Below, one piece after another: positions 46,905 through 62,630 of a stretch of 64,000 nucleotides of DNA. The notes beneath the pieces are model-generated. The model had not been told where the DNA came from, ran no database searches, and worked only from the letters and a program-made list of their open reading frames with translations. Numbering within the stretch: position 1 is the stretch's first letter; every line of letters starts with the position of its first letter. Origin of the DNA: Cytophagia bacterium (GTDB lineage: Bacteria; Bacteroidota; Bacteroidia; Cytophagales; Spirosomataceae). Location of the stretch: the NCBI GenBank assembly GCA_004293645.1, contig REAB01000053.1:1182-65181 (forward strand). The letters are read 5' to 3'. Made by a program: the position numbers and the translations under genes.

Positions 46905-48073
46905 GCGAAATGAAAGCAAAATACATCAATCCTTTTACAGACTACGGATTTAAAAAAATCTTTGGTGAAGAAGCCAGCAAGCCACTTTTGCTCGACTTCT
47001 TGAACGCGCTGTTGCCATTAGAAAGTAAAATCAAGGATTTATCATTTAAAAACAATGAACAGCTTGGTCAAATTGAAGCCGACAGAAAAGCCATTTATGA
47101 CATTTACTGCGAAAGCGAGAACGGCGAACGATTCATTGTAGAATTGCAAAAAGCAAAGCAAAATTACTTCATTGAGCGCACCATTTATTATTCTACTTTC
47201 CCCATTCAAGAGCAAGCCGACAAAGGACACTGGAATTTTAATTTGAAAGCTGTCTATTGTATTGGGGTCTTGGATTTTACTTTCGATGATTACGAAAATG
47301 AGGTTGAAAAAAGCGAATGGGTACACGAAATAAAGCTGAAAAATCAGAATGGCAAGGTTTTTTATGATAAACTGACCTACATTTACCTCGAAATGCCTAA
47401 TTTTAAAAAAACAGAAAGTGAGCTTGAAACCCGTTTAGACCAATGGTTGTATTTCATCAAAAACTTAGAGGACTTTCAGAATATTCCGCACATTTTAAAA
47501 GACGAAGTTGTATTTAACCAAGCATTTGAGAAAGCTGAGTTGGCTAATTTTAATCAATCTGAATGGAGTAGCTATCAGTACAGCCTAAAAATATTTCGTG
47601 ACCTAAACAACACCTATCAGTATGCAGTTGAAACTGCCCGTGAAGAAGGATTGGCGGAAGGATTGGCGGAAGGAATAGAGAAAGGATTGGCGGAAGGAAT
47701 AGAGAAAGGATTGGCCGAAGGAATAGAAAAAGGAATAGAGAAAGGATTGGCCGAAGGAATAGAAAAAGGAATAGAAAAAGGAATAGAAAAAGGAATAGAA
47801 AAAGGATTGGCCGAAGGAATAGAGAAAGGAATAGAAAAAGGATTGGCCGAAGGAATAGAGAAAGGAATAGAAAAAGGATTGGCCGAAGGAATAGAGAAAG
47901 GATTGGCCGAAGGAATAGAAAAAGGAATAGAAAAAGGATTGGCCGAAGGAATAGAGAAAGGCGAAGAAAAAGCGAAAATAGAAATGGCAAAAACTGCCAA
48001 AAGTATGAACATGAATAAAAGCGACATTGCCAAATTGACGGGATTGTCGGAAGAAGAAATTGATAAATTGTAG
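46901..48073 (+). CDS. Rpn family recombination-promoting nuclease / putative PD-(D/E)XK transposase with an expanded C-terminal tetrapeptide repeat
   Basis: It has the N-terminal hallmark KYINPFTDYGFKKIFGEE ... LLDFLNALL and a D ... E-x-K core (DIYCESENGERFIVELQKAKQ). I moved the start to MGEMKAKY at 46901. Confidence 0.75.
   Translation: MGEMKAKYINPFTDYGFKKIFGEEASKPLLLDFLNALLPLESKIKDLSFKNNEQLGQIEADRKAIYDIYCESENGERFIVELQKAKQNYFIERTIYYSTFPIQEQADKGHWNFNLKAVYCIGVLDFTFDDYENEVEKSEWVHEIKLKNQNGKVFYDKLTYIYLEMPNFKKTESELETRLDQWLYFIKNLEDFQNIPHILKDEVVFNQAFEKAELANFNQSEWSSYQYSLKIFRDLNNTYQYAVETAREEGLAEGLAEGIEKGLAEGIEKGLAEGIEKGIEKGLAEGIEKGIEKGIEKGIEKGLAEGIEKGIEKGLAEGIEKGIEKGLAEGIEKGLAEGIEKGIEKGLAEGIEKGEEKAKIEMAKTAKSMNMNKSDIAKLTGLSEEEIDKL
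47648..47971 (+). repeat. 27 tandem 12-bp units encoding GLAE/GIEK
   Basis: I counted GGATTGGC(G/C)GAA and GGAATAGA(G/A)AAA units directly. They are in frame within the Rpn gene. Confidence 0.9.
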
Positions 48074-58096: not shown

Positions 58097-60271
58097 TCAT
58101 TTAAGTATCAGGGCGTAAACATCATTTTTGAGGGTGTAATCGGTAATTTTGCCCATGCCTTGATAATTGACTTTAAAGCCGTGGTTTTCGAGCAAATATA
58201 GCGCGTCGCGCAGCGACATTCCGCGTAAATTTGGAATTTTGTTGGGGTTTGTGTCGGTATTGGTCCATTGTTTTTTTGTGTTTGGGGCCGACATTACCCA
58301 GCCGTTTACGTTCACGGGTGCGTCGGTATTCAGTGCTTCGGCAATGGTGCGGAGGTCGTCGGCTTGGCCAGCGCGCAATTGCTTATTGGTTTCTTTGACA
58401 TTGTTTTTTTTGTTGGGTACGGGCGGGTGCATTTTTACGTCGTAGCCCACTATACGGTCGGCTACTTCTTTGAATACGGGTGCGGCCACGCTGCCCGCGT
58501 AGAGGTTGTCGCCACGGCCACCTTTGGGATGGCTCACAAACACAATGCAACTGTATTTGGGGCTTTTGGCAGGAAAATAACCCGCAAAAGACACGTTATA
58601 TTTACCCACTTTGCTGTACGTATTGTTGATAATGAGCTGCGCCGTACCCGTCTTTCCTGCTATTTGGTACTGGTCGTTGTGAATAATGTGTCCCGTGCCT
58701 TGCTTGTCGGCTACTGCGCCTTCGAGCATTTTTTGTACCCGCCTGATGGTCTGTTCGGAGGCAATCCGTTGCTCCAAAACTTGGGGTTTGATGGCCTGAA
58801 TGACCTCGTTGGCGTTGCGTACTTCTTGCACAATCATGGGGCGCACCCAATAACCATTGTTGGCAATGGCATTGTAAAAACTCAATGTTTGCAACGGCGT
58901 AATTTCCCACACGTATCCGTACGACAGGCGCGTGGCCGAGGTGCCGTCCCAGCCCGTAGTTTTGGGTTGCGGGGCCAGCGGCGGGGCTTCGCCCAGCATG
59001 GCTACGCCCGTGGGTTGGGTCAAATGAAACTTTTTGAGGTATTCCATGTATTTGTAGGGGTTGGTATAAAACCCGCTTCGTTGCATAATCAGGTGCGTTC
59101 CTACGTTCGACGATTGCTCCAATACCTGCTGCACCGTAATTGTGCCGTGGGCTTTGGTGTCGGTAATGGTAACTCTACCGTAAGTAGTGCTGCCATTGCC
59201 AGTCTGAATGGACGTGGCAGGCGAAACCTTGCCTTCTTCGAGGGCGGCTACCATAGTGGCAAGTTTGAAAGTAGAGCCTGGGTTGGTGGGTTGGGCCAGG
59301 GCGTAATTGAAGGTTTCGGCGTAGCCCGTGTCTTTTTTGCTGAGGGCTAAATTAACCATCGCTTTGATGGCTCCCGTTTGCACTTCCATTACAATAACGG
59401 TGCCGTAGTCGGCTTGGTAGCGGTTTAGAGTTTTGCGCAACGACGACTCGGCAATGTCCTGAAAATTAACGTCGAGCGTAGTGTAGAGGTCGTAGCCGTT
59501 GGCGGGTTGTAGTTTTTCGCTTTCTTCAAAGGGCATAAAAGTTTTGTCGTCGAGTACCCTAAACAAGCCTATTCCGGGCGTTCCCGACAGTTTTCTGTCA
59601 AAACTTGCCTCCAAACCCACCAGTCCACGGTAGGTGGCGCGGTCGAGGTAGCCAATGGTGCGGGCGGCCAAATTGCCAAAAGGCAGGTAGCGGCGATAAA
59701 AAACGGGGAGCTTGCCACCGCGCGTTTCGCCGTTGTTAAATTGCCTAAAAAACGGCCAACCGCGCGTTGCCTTCGCACTGGGCTGTATTTGCTGCGTGGT
59801 TATCATCTGGTATTCTCGAAAAGTAATCTGCCGATTGAGCAGCCGCACGTTGCGGTTACCTTTCTTTTTGTTTACTTCAAACTCATGGCGGGCAAATTTT
59901 AACTCGCGCAGGTAGTCTTCTTTGGTGCGTTGCCCAAACGTATTGGCAAAAAGCGTAGCCAACGAGTCTATGCGGCTATAAAAGTACTTTTCTTTGCTGG
60001 CGGCGGGGTCTATCGAAACCTCATAATAGGGCAAAGAAGTAGCCAAGAGGCTGCCATCGCTCGAATAAATATTGCCGCGCATGGCCGGAATGGTGTCAAT
60101 CCGAACGGTGTTGGCCATGTATTTTACCCACGGTTTGCCTTTGTACTTGGCATAGTGCTGCACATAGACAATGCGCCATATCACGAGTATGGCCACAATG
60201 ATAAGCAGCGAAGACACCACCCAAGAGCGTCGTGCAATGTCTGCCCGAATGTTGTTGGTTTTGGAAATCAT
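58097..60271 (-). CDS. ftsI: Penicillin-binding protein 2 / FtsI-type peptidoglycan D,D-transpeptidase with a C-terminal PASTA domain
   Basis: It has SxxK (GSTFKLA), SxN (SSNVG), KTG (GKTGTA) and an N-terminal TM anchor, and it follows ftsL. Confidence 0.9.
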   Translation of the reverse strand: MISKTNNIRADIARRSWVVSSLLIIVAILVIWRIVYVQHYAKYKGKPWVKYMANTVRIDTIPAMRGNIYSSDGSLLATSLPYYEVSIDPAASKEKYFYSRIDSLATLFANTFGQRTKEDYLRELKFARHEFEVNKKKGNRNVRLLNRQITFREYQMITTQQIQPSAKATRGWPFFRQFNNGETRGGKLPVFYRRYLPFGNLAARTIGYLDRATYRGLVGLEASFDRKLSGTPGIGLFRVLDDKTFMPFEESEKLQPANGYDLYTTLDVNFQDIAESSLRKTLNRYQADYGTVIVMEVQTGAIKAMVNLALSKKDTGYAETFNYALAQPTNPGSTFKLATMVAALEEGKVSPATSIQTGNGSTTYGRVTITDTKAHGTITVQQVLEQSSNVGTHLIMQRSGFYTNPYKYMEYLKKFHLTQPTGVAMLGEAPPLAPQPKTTGWDGTSATRLSYGYVWEITPLQTLSFYNAIANNGYWVRPMIVQEVRNANEVIQAIKPQVLEQRIASEQTIRRVQKMLEGAVADKQGTGHIIHNDQYQIAGKTGTAQLIINNTYSKVGKYNVSFAGYFPAKSPKYSCIVFVSHPKGGRGDNLYAGSVAAPVFKEVADRIVGYDVKMHPPVPNKKNNVKETNKQLRAGQADDLRTIAEALNTDAPVNVNGWVMSAPNTKKQWTNTDTNPNKIPNLRGMSLRDALYLLENHGFKVNYQGMGKITDYTLKNDVYALILK

Positions 60272-60295
60272 GGGTTAGAATGGTTAAAGTGGGTA

Positions 60296-60685
60296 CTATT
60301 TTTCAACGGGTTTTATGACAATTCGATAAGGGGCTTGCTTGCTTTCTATCAGCCCCAACGCTTGGAGTTTAGGGGCCAATTCCGACTGCTTGCCGCTCTT
60401 CATGTAGTGGGCTTTTCTGATGGTATAAGTGGCTTGCAACTGATGAATTTCGTCGGTGAGTTTGCGCATTTGGCGCATCTGACGCTCGGCGTTGAGCCTA
60501 AAACCAATCAAAATAAGCCCCAAAAGCAGCAAAAACCCCGCCCTGTCAATGTAACGCACGGGAAATTCTTTGCCAATTGCTTTTTCTAAGTTCAACCTGT
60601 TGCCTATCCAATTCATGGTTCTGCTCTCGGTTTTAGCTTTTTTAGGAATCGACTTTTTGGTGCCTTTAACAACGTTCTGAGCCAT
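60296..60685 (-). CDS. ftsL: FtsL-like cell division protein (Bacteroidota type)
   Basis: It is a small bitopic protein (one TM, then a coiled coil) located between rsmH and ftsI. Confidence 0.7.
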   Translation of the reverse strand: MAQNVVKGTKKSIPKKAKTESRTMNWIGNRLNLEKAIGKEFPVRYIDRAGFLLLLGLILIGFRLNAERQMRQMRKLTDEIHQLQATYTIRKAHYMKSGKQSELAPKLQALGLIESKQAPYRIVIKPVEK

Positions 60686-60731
60686 TTTTATGCCTTATTT
60701 TTGGTTAATTTATGCAGATTAAGGACTATAC

Positions 60732-60789
60732 CTATTTAGGTCGGAGACCTAATGACACCCGTGCGTAGTTTCAAACTACGCACAACGAA
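60732..60789 (+). repeat. 58-bp double-hairpin repeat, copy 1
   Basis: It is identical (58/58) to 61483-61540. Its hairpins are TTAGGTC-GGA-GACCTAA and GTGCGTAGTTT-C-AAACTACGCAC. Confidence 0.9.
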
Positions 60790-60830
60790 CGCGTCTTTTT
60801 GGTGCCTTTAACAACGTTCTGAGCTCCCAT
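60771..60830 (-). pseudogene. Truncated duplicate of the ftsL 5' end (19 codons: MGAQNVVKGTKKTRSLCVV*)
   Basis: The 30 nt at 60795-60824 are identical to the ftsL start region at 60653-60682. The frame then runs into the 58-bp repeat and stops. Confidence 0.7.
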
Positions 60831-60855
60831 TTTGCCAAACCCCTGTTGGTGGTCG

Positions 60856-61425
60856 TTATTTTTTTTCGTTTATATATTCGTTCGTAAAATGTTGTTTATG
60901 TTTCGGTTTCGCAAATTTGTCAGCGTTGTATTCTTTTGAATTTCCTTTAGGAATTGAAAGTGAAGCCCAATTTTCGCCACACAATAGTTTTCCAATAAAC
61001 ACAATTTGTCCAACGTGATATGGATAATGTGCAAGTTGTCTGTTTATTGCTTCTGCTATAGTGTGTCCTTGATTTCGGATAAATATTTCCTTCGTCAAAT
61101 CTTTTTCTGTCAACGGACTGATTGCGTTAAATAAACAAGTCCAACCTTCATTCCATTTTGCCAAAAGTTCTGTTCGGTCTGCAATGTCGTTGTCAAATTC
61201 AGCATCTCTTTGTCGCCATTCTTTTTCTCCGTCTGTTGTCAAAAAATCTGTCCAACGTGAAAGCATATTTCCCCACAAATGTTTTACAATTGTCGCAATA
61301 CTATTACTTTCTTCATTTAATTGTCTGAAAAGTTGTTCGTCTGTTAGTTGCGAAAATGTTTTTTCTCCAAGCATTTTGTAATACTCAAATTGTTTTTTCG
61401 CACTGTCTAAAAAGTCGTTTGTCAT
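60856..61425 (-). CDS. DinB-superfamily (DUF1572-like) protein
   Basis: It has a four-helix DinB-like sequence with conserved His residues (VKHLWGN, LAHYPYHVGQ). It is AT-rich relative to the flanking dcw genes. Confidence 0.7.
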   Translation of the reverse strand: MTNDFLDSAKKQFEYYKMLGEKTFSQLTDEQLFRQLNEESNSIATIVKHLWGNMLSRWTDFLTTDGEKEWRQRDAEFDNDIADRTELLAKWNEGWTCLFNAISPLTEKDLTKEIFIRNQGHTIAEAINRQLAHYPYHVGQIVFIGKLLCGENWASLSIPKGNSKEYNADKFAKPKHKQHFTNEYINEKK

Positions 61426-61482
61426 ATCATTTCAATGTCGTTAAATTTCTTTCGGTTTCGGGTTTTATATAATTGCCACCAA

Positions 61483-61540
61483 CTATTTAGGTCGGAGACC
61501 TAATGACACCCGTGCGTAGTTTCAAACTACGCACAACGAA
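61483..61540 (+). repeat. 58-bp double-hairpin repeat, copy 2
   Basis: It is identical to 60732-60789. Confidence 0.9.
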
Positions 61541-61550
61541 TATCAAATAT

Positions 61551-61715
61551 CAAATTTCCTGACACTAACGGATTTGGTGGGGCAAATAATATAGATACTG
61601 ACTATTAGGTAGTTACAAAATTAGGGAACTGTTGTTTTGCTACTTGGTGGGCAGGAAACAAGTTACATATCGTTATTTTATACCCCCACCAAATTAGTTA
61701 GTGTCAGCAAATTTC
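61551..61715. mobile_element. 149-bp MITE (61559-61707) with 24-bp terminal inverted repeats and an 8-bp target-site duplication
   Basis: The left TIR is CTGACACTAACGGATTTGGTGGGG. The reverse complement of the right TIR is CTGACACTAACTAATTTGGTGGGG (22/24). The TSD CAAATTTC lies at 61551-61558 and 61708-61715. There is no internal ORF. Confidence 0.75.
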
Positions 61716-61727
61716 AAATACCAAATA

Positions 61728-62630
61728 TCAAACTTTTTCCGCTATTCGGAGCTTGGCACTGCGGGCGCGGGGGTTTTCGGCGGTTTCGGTGGCCGATGGC
61801 TCAATGGCTTTTCGTACTACCGCGCTGAGCGGTTTCAAATCGTTGCCAAAGAGGTCTTTTTCTACGTCGCCGTGAAACTTTCCTTTGTTGATAAAATTCT
61901 TCACCAAACGGTCTTCCAACGAGTGGTAAGACATCACTACGAGGCGGCCATTGGGTTTGAGCATTTCGGCGGTTTGGGTCAAAAACTCTTGTAAAGCCGT
62001 CATTTCGTCGTTTACTTCGATGCGCAACGCCTGAAAAATCTGGGCAAAATACTTGTTTTCTTTGCCGCGCGGGGCGTAGCGTTGCAACACACCTTTGAGG
62101 TCGTTTACGGTTTCGATGGGTTGGTTGAGGCGGGCTGTAAACACGGCCTGGGCGGCGGTTTTTGCGTTTTGCACTTCGCCATACATTCCAAAAATACGGT
62201 GCAGCTCGGCACTCGAATAGCCGTTAATGACCTCGCCAGCGGTTTGGCCTGCGCGTTGGTTCATGCGCATATCGAGGTTGGCCTCAAAGCGCGTCGAAAA
62301 GCCCCGCTCGGCGGTGTCAAACTGGTGCGACGAAACCCCCAAATCGGCCAGAATCCCATCTACTTCGGTGGCACCGTAGAGCCGGGCATATTTTTTCAAA
62401 TGTCTAAAATTGGCATCAATAAAAGTAAACTGTTTGTCGGCCACAAAACGCGCATTTTGGTTGGCATCGGGGTCTTGGTCAAACGAAAAAAGCCGTCCCT
62501 TGTCGCCCAAACGCGCCAAAATAGCCCGCGAATGGCCGCCTCCGCCAAAAGTGGCATCAATATAAACGCCGTCGGGCTTTAAGTTTAAACCTTCTAAGCA
62601 CTCGGCCAGCATAACAGGGTTGTGGTACAT
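61728..62630 (-). CDS. rsmH: 16S rRNA (cytosine1402-N4)-methyltransferase
   Basis: MYHNPVMLAECLEGL ... DATFGGGGHSRAIL; full length of 300 aa. Confidence 0.9.
   Translation of the reverse strand: MYHNPVMLAECLEGLNLKPDGVYIDATFGGGGHSRAILARLGDKGRLFSFDQDPDANQNARFVADKQFTFIDANFRHLKKYARLYGATEVDGILADLGVSSHQFDTAERGFSTRFEANLDMRMNQRAGQTAGEVINGYSSAELHRIFGMYGEVQNAKTAAQAVFTARLNQPIETVNDLKGVLQRYAPRGKENKYFAQIFQALRIEVNDEMTALQEFLTQTAEMLKPNGRLVVMSYHSLEDRLVKNFINKGKFHGDVEKDLFGNDLKPLSAVVRKAIEPSATETAENPRARSAKLRIAEKV

Follow-up and report, generated by a model that had tools for sequence, protein, structure and literature searches.

A probable secondary ftsL fragment in the scar of an integron-type gene cassette between rsmH and ftsL of a Cytophagia lineage

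Several known processes leave short direct repeats or small patches of copied sequence beside genes. Transposon target duplications and att cores place direct repeats on both sides of an insert, and att elements additionally rebuild the end of the gene that they enter. Repetitive extragenic palindromic (REP) sequences and bacterial interspersed mosaic elements (BIME) are intergenic repeats that are mobilised in Proteobacteria by REP-associated tyrosine transposases (RAYT, enzymes of the Y1 type resembling that of insertion sequence IS200). Microhomology-mediated template switching and short-patch illegitimate recombination occur near hairpins. Integron integrases can place gene cassettes into genomic GWT sites outside integrons, the resulting off-integron cassettes depend on host promoters for their expression, and the chromosome is modified by imprecise events near the insertions (10.1101/2022.09.11.507474). 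The present analysis concerns a 64,000-nucleotide stretch of contig REAB01000053.1 from a Cytophagia bacterium (assembly GCA_004293645.1), hereafter the window, in which the beginning of the cell-division gene ftsL is present twice: once in the functional gene and once in a short fragment upstream of it, behind a gene of family DUF1572.

The upstream copy is proposed here to be a secondary, ectopic copy of ftsL nucleotides 4-36 lying inside the broken attC recombination site of a horizontally acquired integron-type cassette in a Runella-like Cytophagia lineage, an overall explanation to which about even weight is given. The more general statement, a secondary copy within a cassette scar combined with a native start downstream, is likely, being common to the favoured path and to a rival in which a duplication came first. 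The particular path, leading from tandem 58-nucleotide repeats (58-mers) through entry of the cassette at GTT to a patch of ftsL sequence, is held tentatively, at somewhat less than even weight. Read along the minus strand, rsmH is followed by a 32-nt spacer (carrying a strain-variable palindromic insertion), 58-mer A, the border G^TTGGTGG (a caret within a sequence marks a junction), the DUF1572 cassette, the first 28 nt of attC (CCACCAAC AGGGGTTTGGCAAAATGGGA), ftsL nucleotides 4-36, the bases CG^TTCGTTG that open 58-mer B, 58-mer B, a 46-nt leader, the ATG and ftsL itself, with ftsI (58097-60271) beyond. The elements of the locus are as follows.

60296-60685, minus strand: functional ftsL (129 amino acids, MAQNVVKGTKKSIP...) with its native start; Pfam FtsL_2, E=7e-17; N-terminus in agreement with all orthologues.
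60650-60682, minus strand: native copy of the repeated block, ftsL nucleotides 4-36 or codons 2-12 (codon 12 is TCG here, ACG in sister strains).
60686-60731, minus strand: 46-nt leader S, from 58-mer B to the ftsL ATG, unique in the window.
60732-60789, minus strand: 58-mer copy B, REP-like, with two hairpins (GTGCGTAGTTTGAAACTACGCAC and TTAGGTCTCCGACCTAA); exact repeat, DNA fold z = -4.5.
60790-60791, minus strand: CG dinucleotide preceding ^TT, read as the conserved last two bases of attC or, under the rival, as junction filler.
60792-60824, minus strand: ectopic ftsL nucleotides 4-36 (GCTCAG...AAAAAGACG), 30/30 in the window and 33/33 in sister strain L209.
60825-60852, minus strand: attC-like remnant, R'' box CCACCAAC and L'' box AGGGGTTTGGCAAAATGGGA, holding the upstream ATG (60828-60830); 88% identical to the first 26 nt of the 128-nt site of locus L131.
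60771-60830, minus strand: 19-codon chimeric upstream open reading frame (ORF), MGAQNVVKGTKKTRSLCVV and a stop codon in the loop of the 58-mer hairpin.
60856-61425, minus strand: DUF1572/DinB_2 gene, 189 amino acids, the cassette cargo; Pfam E=1e-74, GC 34%.
60853-61482, minus strand: horizontally acquired cassette body, its left end TTGGTGGCAATT adjoining the G of 58-mer A and starting at 61482; DNA homology starts there in six unrelated loci.
61483-61540, minus strand: 58-mer copy A, identical and co-oriented to copy B; exact repeat.
61728-62630, minus strand: rsmH (mraW), in relatives directly upstream of ftsL.

An exact-repeat listing of the window returned 60653-60682 and 60795-60824 as a 30-nt direct repeat without mismatch, for which the chance expectation in 64 kb is about 2e-9 (approximately 2e9 position pairs multiplied by 4^-30). 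An earlier reading made from the letters alone (the sequence-only reading) had already reported this identity, which holds, and had described the block as codons 2-11 of ftsL plus part of codon 12. Codons 2-11 are indeed matched exactly, while codon 12 agrees at two of three bases in the window; a repeat search lengthens the match to 33 nt with one mismatch, TCG against ACG at that codon. In sister strains L209-L211 the functional gene reads AAAAAG ACG ATT, making the repeat 33/33, a length that bears out the earlier remark that it far exceeds a classical target-site duplication, for which 2-14 bp is usual. The copies are spaced 142 nt apart, with 109 nt and no ORF between them. Also as reported before, the ATG at 60830 opens a frame of 19 codons that stops in the 58-mer hairpin, and a further 145 nt separate it from the functional ATG downstream, at 60685.

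Sister strains were found by exact look-ups of FtsL, one FtsL variant and RsmH, which returned NCBI metagenome-assembled genomes (MAGs) labelled Cytophagia or Runella, a JGI metagenome and Logan contigs. MAGs of the source lineage are GCA_013299025.1, GCA_004293585.1, GCA_004292915.1 and GCA_004293785.1, and the source samples include SRR9948921, SRR9948927, SRR12360574 and JGI 3300079869. A collapsed or chimeric repeat created by assembly, which the sequence-only reading had considered, might be suspected because short-k Logan contigs break inside the 58-mer; yet these contigs end exactly 30 nt (k-1) into it, as a two-copy repeat predicts. The identical layout was moreover assembled independently in L001, L002, L003, L006, L209 and L210, giving at least seven independent assemblies from different samples, with polymorphisms specific to one copy or the other (AAA/GAA in the upstream copy of L001 and L210; ACG/TCG at codon 12 of the gene), so that the probability of an artefact is virtually nil. 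The layout is also old, being common to strains whose ftsL tails have since diverged, with the upstream copy retaining the ancestral ACG; the ftsL allele of the window changed later (T12S, H14P, R15K).

Between these tail alleles, KKTIHRK and KKSIPKK, three substitutions fall within a span of 11 nt directly after the duplicated block (60641-60652; L209-L211), and all three shift towards TCAATTCCTAAA (SIPK) in the DUF1572 gene at 60946-60957, about 300 nt upstream. Either chance or another small templated patch could account for the change.

Comparison of FtsL N-termini places the native start downstream. All 16 aligned FtsL orthologues begin MAxNV, like the downstream copy and without the extra Gly of the upstream frame, and no MGAQNV variant occurs among the FtsL cluster members. 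In the nearest FtsL relatives outside the lineage (L009, L010 and L013; 79, 73 and 70% identical), rsmH is followed directly by ftsL (ATGGCNCARAAYGT) across gaps of 147, 14 and 73 nt, with no DUF1572, no intervening gene and no 58-mer between them. Because all orthologues begin in this way and the relatives have rsmH directly before ftsL, the downstream start is taken as canonical, ftsL having in all probability kept its own start, and everything from rsmH to that start is suspect as inserted material. The sequence-only reading had taken the upstream ATG as an older ftsL start cut off by an insertion of about 140 nt and had looked to N-termini in relatives for the ancestral start; these N-termini point to the downstream one instead, and to the left of the upstream copy lies attC rather than an ftsL leader. 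The 46-nt leader, when compared with the spacers of relatives, is not significantly similar to them (p = 0.18-0.41), which leaves its native origin unproven, and the 25 nt after the DUF1572 stop codon show no similarity to it. As a separate observation, the rsmH-ftsL spacer of the closest outside relative (L009, 3850-3990) is full of tandem repeats of the GTGTAGAG/GTGTAAAG type, and in these bacteria the sequence of this spacer seems to turn over repeatedly.

The gene between rsmH and ftsL is of a different character from its neighbours, with a GC content of 34% against 45-52% for rsmH, ftsL and ftsI. Its closest protein relatives, at 90-94% amino acid identity, are found in Flavobacterium, Flavobacteriaceae and Chitinophagaceae MAGs, whereas copies from Cytophagales and Spirosomataceae reach just 72-77%; at the DNA level, identity to the best Flavobacterium and Chitinophagaceae loci is 86-90%. 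The low GC, the closer kin outside its own order and the high DNA identity together show that the DUF1572 gene is foreign to the lineage. In the six closest loci, DNA homology starts exactly at TTGGTGG (TTGGTGGCAATT; 61482 in the window), the first base after 58-mer A, while upstream of this border each locus has a different sequence; the base preceding the border is G in 5/7 loci. After the stop codon, CGACCACCAACAGGGGTTTGGCAAAATGG in the window matches CTGCAACCAACATCGGTTTGGCATTATGG in L129.

The unit thus delimited behaves as integron cassettes do, being a discrete mobile element with a 5' border at the TT of a G^TT crossover and with varied genomic contexts, and the same cassette with the same type of attC lies within co-oriented cassette arrays in L129 and L159. 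We infer an integron-type gene cassette, now degraded rather than intact, because only the first 28 nt of its attC remain and the region no longer folds. A literature search returned nothing specific describing DUF1572/DinB as a cassette. No terminator-like sites were found in 60500-61800, where promoter-like matches did not exceed those in shuffled sequence (terminator and promoter scan); since no terminator-like site separates rsmH from ftsL, DUF1572 is probably read as part of the division and cell wall (dcw) operon. The loci L127, L128 and L129-L133 and window positions 60853-61482 form one DUF1572 cassette lineage, at 86-90% DNA identity in different contexts across Flavobacterium, Chitinophagaceae and the present Cytophagia lineage, and in L130-L132 a glyoxalase-like ORF follows DUF1572 inside the same conserved block.

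The recombination site of this cassette can be recognised in related loci, whose flanks were examined over 2.5 kb only. It belongs to a CCACCAAC/GTTGGTGG type of attC. In L131 a complete 128-nt element, CCACCAAC...AACG^TTGGTGG, lies upstream of the DUF1572 cassette, between the preceding ORF and DUF1572; its ends are inverse complements and it folds as one long, imperfect, bulged hairpin (z = -4.9). L129 has the same element, 94% identical, on the downstream side of DUF1572. Ahead of DUF1572, related sites occur in L146 (..ACCG^TTAGTGG), L157 (..AACG^TTAGCCG) and L159 (..AACG^TTGGCTG), and matching attC-like sites occur in L132 and L143. L129 and L159 look like arrays of co-oriented ORFs of 100-300 amino acids with attC-like sites between them. 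A crude attC scanner, which gives many false positives in coding DNA, was used solely for the strong hits in L131 and L137. Related attC-like ends finish in CG^ in 7/8 cases, as does the junction in the window.

The window holds just the first ~28 nt of such a site (60852-60825). A complete attC, with inverse cores and an imperfect palindrome of 57-141 nt forming one bulged hairpin, is not present there, and the chimeric region 60783-60855 no longer folds (z = +1.4). The L'' box reads TTTGGCA(A/T)TATGG-CGG-CTGA in L129 and L131, TTTGGCAAAAGTGG-CGG-TTCAG in L132, TTTGGCAATAGTAG-AG-CTGA in L159 and TTTGGCAAAATGG-GAG-CTCAGAACG in the window, compared with AAGGCATAAAAATGG-CTCAGAACG at the native ftsL start. 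The extra codon of the upstream start (ATGG-GAG-CT) therefore aligns where attC sites carry ATGG-CGG-CT or GTAG-AG-CT. Because this codon takes the place of CGG or AG in related L'' boxes, it and the upstream ATG are best read as a cassette attC remnant, neither an older nor an alternative ftsL start. The switch into ftsL sequence would lie at the shared GCT, with just ftsL nucleotides 4-36 copied. Since the attC cannot fold, the site is presumably dead and the cassette locked in place.

These alignments bear directly on the model of the sequence-only reading, in which ftsL was interrupted after codon 11/12 by a segment of about 140 nt that brought a 58-mer together with a new leader and start, the upstream ATG being the older one. 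The model matches the repeat-insert-repeat layout and its 142-nt spacing, and the upstream ORF is in frame with the ftsL fragment. It is nevertheless highly improbable: the upstream ATG and extra codon align with attC L'' boxes and not with ftsL leaders, the extra Gly is missing in orthologues, no recombinase gene lies between the repeats, and a second 58-mer 751 nt upstream is left unaccounted for. It would also need a past fusion of ftsL to the cassette with loss of the native leader, and offers no source for the leader that reappears downstream. Rather than an insertion into ftsL, the occurrence of two 58-mers bracketing a foreign gene points to a cassette upstream of ftsL together with an ectopic ftsL patch. 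The same reading had suggested an att core or a template switch; a site for site-specific recombination probably did play a part, as did an event resembling a template switch, and the upstream ATG derives from attC.

The two 58-mers (60732-60789 and 61483-61540) are identical, co-oriented and 751 nt apart, bracketing the DUF1572 ORF and the upstream ftsL fragment, and each folds into two hairpins. A metagenome scan with a 19-nt hairpin core, GCGTAGTTT[G/C]AAACTACGC, returned 111 stretches, none with the 58-mer of the window, and exposed a related two-hairpin repeat family of the same layout: GGTC-N3/4-GACC, 13 nt, then the core. A short palindromic unit with this hairpin-13 nt-hairpin arrangement, as is typical of REP sequences, is seen in 15 metagenomic copies, whose stem extensions differ from those of the 58-mer in a compensatory manner. 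Some of the related repeats stand alone, some are separated by gene-sized distances, and in L076, L088 and L116 they follow one another head to tail with a period of 63-64 nt, the unit borders in these tandems lying 9 nt outside the large hairpin compared with 8 nt in the window. A reading of the 58-mer as one attC, or of everything from CCACCAAC through the end of 58-mer B, was rejected on three grounds: two separate perfect hairpins, a lack of complementarity to the L'' box, and the different sequence upstream of copy A.

Among side observations on this family, the 19-nt core lies in the 111 stretches (L016-L126) between many unrelated flanks, often at the centre of longer perfect palindromes. 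Positions 1-2650 of L088 form a dense REP-like cluster with seven copies, a second repeat type at 441-788 and an adjoining 87-amino-acid IS200-like fragment. In the same locus the apparent 3' part of an RNase E/G gene begins right after a repeat copy, and in L073 the same gene reaches further upstream (this observation covers L088, L031 and L073).

The direct orientation of the 58-mers raises two related possibilities, a Campbell-type integration of a 751-nt circle (58-mer, cassette and ftsL fragment) at a resident 58-mer, or a unit mobilised by an IS200-like (Y1/RAYT) enzyme. Either would yield the observed order exactly, the 58-mers being repeated in direct orientation, as are the two hairpin ends of IS200/IS605 elements, and the IS200-like fragment of L088, which carries an HIH motif, stands beside related repeats. 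A circle, however, presupposes a donor genome with cassette and ftsL already fused. As regards a Y1 unit, the Y1_Tnp match of that fragment scores 17.5 bits, short of the 23 bits that Pfam requires, and no candidate intact Y1/IS200-like gene was seen near the related repeats in L040, L073 and L076. Neither finds a common target sequence at the 58-mer ends, and together they are considered very improbable.

The favoured path is assembled from three junctions. At J1 (..AAATAG^TTGGTGG) 58-mer A ends and the cassette begins, J2 joins the attC L'' box to ftsL nucleotide 4 at an ATGG..GCT microhomology, and J3 leads from ftsL nucleotide 36 through CG^TTCGTTG into 58-mer B; J1 and J3 are both G^TT. 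First, the rsmH-ftsL spacer would have held two tandem REP-like 58-mers. Second, recombination of the integron-integrase type may have put a circular cassette into the GTT of the 58-mer junction (..AAATAG^TTCGTTG..). The identical bracketing 58-mers, their exact borders and the CG would be explained together, because a single insertion at a tandem junction makes J1 and J3 at once. Third, replication may have switched template out of the hairpin-prone attC and back at short homologies, between the L'' box (GGCAAAATGG-GAG-CT) and the ftsL start (GGCATAAAAATGG-CT) on the left and near ..AAAA.ACG/CG on the right, so that ~95 nt of central and 3' attC would have been replaced by 33 nt copied from ftsL ~110 nt downstream. 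An equivalent route for this third step would be a 142-nt duplication from the CG of attC to ftsL nucleotide 36, followed by a microhomology deletion.

The serious rival reverses the order. A 142-nt tandem duplication of 58-mer, 46-nt leader, ATG and 33 nt of ftsL, with a 2-nt CG filler, would have come first; the cassette would then have entered at the 58-mer/leader border of the dispensable upstream copy, and a deletion from the attC L'' box to the duplicated ATGGCT would finally have removed the remaining attC and the upstream leader. Tandem duplications and microhomology deletions beside hairpins are common events, and this order accounts well for copies that are collinear (58-mer, x, ftsL fragment, twice) and for two repeat pairs that are equally undiverged (58/58 and 33/33 in L209). 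The left junction of the ftsL fragment sits at the ATGG..GCT microhomology, as such a deletion predicts, and a pre-existing duplication would render an insertion beside an essential start harmless. Four features nonetheless make it unlikely on balance. The insertion would have occurred at G^GT (AAATAG^GTATAG), which is not an integron-integrase GWT/GTT site; the CG filler would equal the conserved attC terminus by chance only, at about 1 in 16; the 58-mer borders would be arbitrary, yet they frame the two-hairpin unit nearly as in the related repeat family; and no trace of an upstream leader is left (X versus S, p = 0.66).

Several points weigh against the explanation through tandem 58-mers, cassette entry and patch. 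No cassette-free strain, which could choose between the two orders of events, was found by the FtsL, FtsL-variant and RsmH look-ups, all contigs of sufficient length carrying the cassette, and neither a tandem 58-mer ancestor nor an intermediate was seen, short contigs breaking in the 58-mer or in the palindromic insertion. The microhomology on the right-hand side of the patch is weak, and a double template switch is a rarer type of event than a plain tandem duplication. The core boxes (CACCAAC/GTTGGTG) deviate from the class-1 RYYYAAC/GTTRRRY consensus beyond the AAC/GTT triplets, and an integron integrase was not identified in this genome, in which no search aimed at one was made. Within 64 kb the 58-mer is confined to the two copies at this locus, and it (hairpin plus TAGGTC) is absent from 185,579 representative genomes, so the description as REP-like appeals to its architecture only.

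Two features of the window stand apart from this argument. The first is the palindromic insertion next to 58-mer A, which resembles a miniature inverted-repeat transposable element (MITE).

61559-61715, no strand assigned: 157-nt palindromic MITE-like insertion, polymorphic among strains and outside the duplication.

Its ends read CTGACACTAAC...GTTAGTGTCAG, with GAAATTTG on either side. The window, L003, L006 and L215 carry it, L001, L002, L209 and L210 have a clean empty site, several contigs break within it, and no further copy exists in the 64 kb. An Rfam scan of 60200-62000 returned only sub-threshold microRNA noise over this palindrome. The second feature is a block of 12/36-nt periodic tandem repeats at 47645-47960 in the exact-repeat listing.

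If the cassette reading is correct, the locus represents an integron-type cassette fixed among the essential cell-division genes of the dcw operon in a Cytophagia lineage, belonging to a cassette that is common to three Bacteroidota classes at ~87-90% DNA identity, and it would allow the loss of a recombination site to be followed base by base. Off-integron insertion of cassettes in Bacteroidota, and their immobilisation, have in this locus a candidate natural example. For annotation, the upstream ATG should be treated as neither an alternative nor an ancestral ftsL start; expression of ftsL would begin at its own start, downstream of two hairpin units, with the 19-codon upstream ORF as a by-product. 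On present evidence this is an unusual scar on a known kind of event and no new mechanism. A broader reading, in which the ftsL patch is a typical by-product of integron-integrase recombination at genomic sites and not a one-off accident, is very unlikely. Under it, replication has to pass through the folded attC to resolve the products, a step that may trigger template switches into neighbouring DNA, which may overwrite the attC and permanently domesticate the cassette within a host operon, and junctions of tandem REP-like units may be favoured genomic entry points. If this were true generally, truncated attC sites with neighbour-gene patches would mark many hidden cassette acquisitions in core operons of Bacteroidota.

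Set beside the known systems, the locus resembles each in part. With target-site duplications and att cores it shares direct repeats around an insert and an intact essential gene. The repeat of 33 nt, with foreign attC and not a native leader to its left, differs from a transposon target-site duplication, and 109 nt without an ORF between the repeats, with no recombinase-encoding element, differ from an att core of a phage or an integrative and conjugative element. The similarity to template switching lies in a short tract taken from a nearby template, in homologies of 3-7 nt at the junctions and in a position beside a strongly hairpin-forming attC, although here the process is deduced from one scar with little homology at its right-hand end. 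As in REP and BIME repeats, the unit is ~60 nt long, intergenic and formed of stable hairpins, is single or tandem in related metagenomic contigs and shows compensatory stems; it departs from them in having two copies in 64 kb, both at this locus, none in representative genomes, and a weak link to Y1 enzymes. The closest parallel is with isolated integron cassettes at attG sites (single attC sites lacking integron integrases, SALIN). Unlike these, the attC of the window is cut to 28 nt and the remainder replaced by 33 nt from the essential gene beside it, the host lineage belongs to the Cytophagia (Bacteroidota), with no integrase identified, and the proposed target is the junction of two REP-like units. 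Like them, the locus presents a single promoterless ORF with an attC-type 3' site outside an integron, situated inside a host operon where expression is possible, the same cassette recurs in many unrelated contexts, and both junctions are G^TT, fitting the GWT consensus at sites where imprecise, chromosome-modifying events have been reported (Loot et al., 10.1101/2022.09.11.507474).

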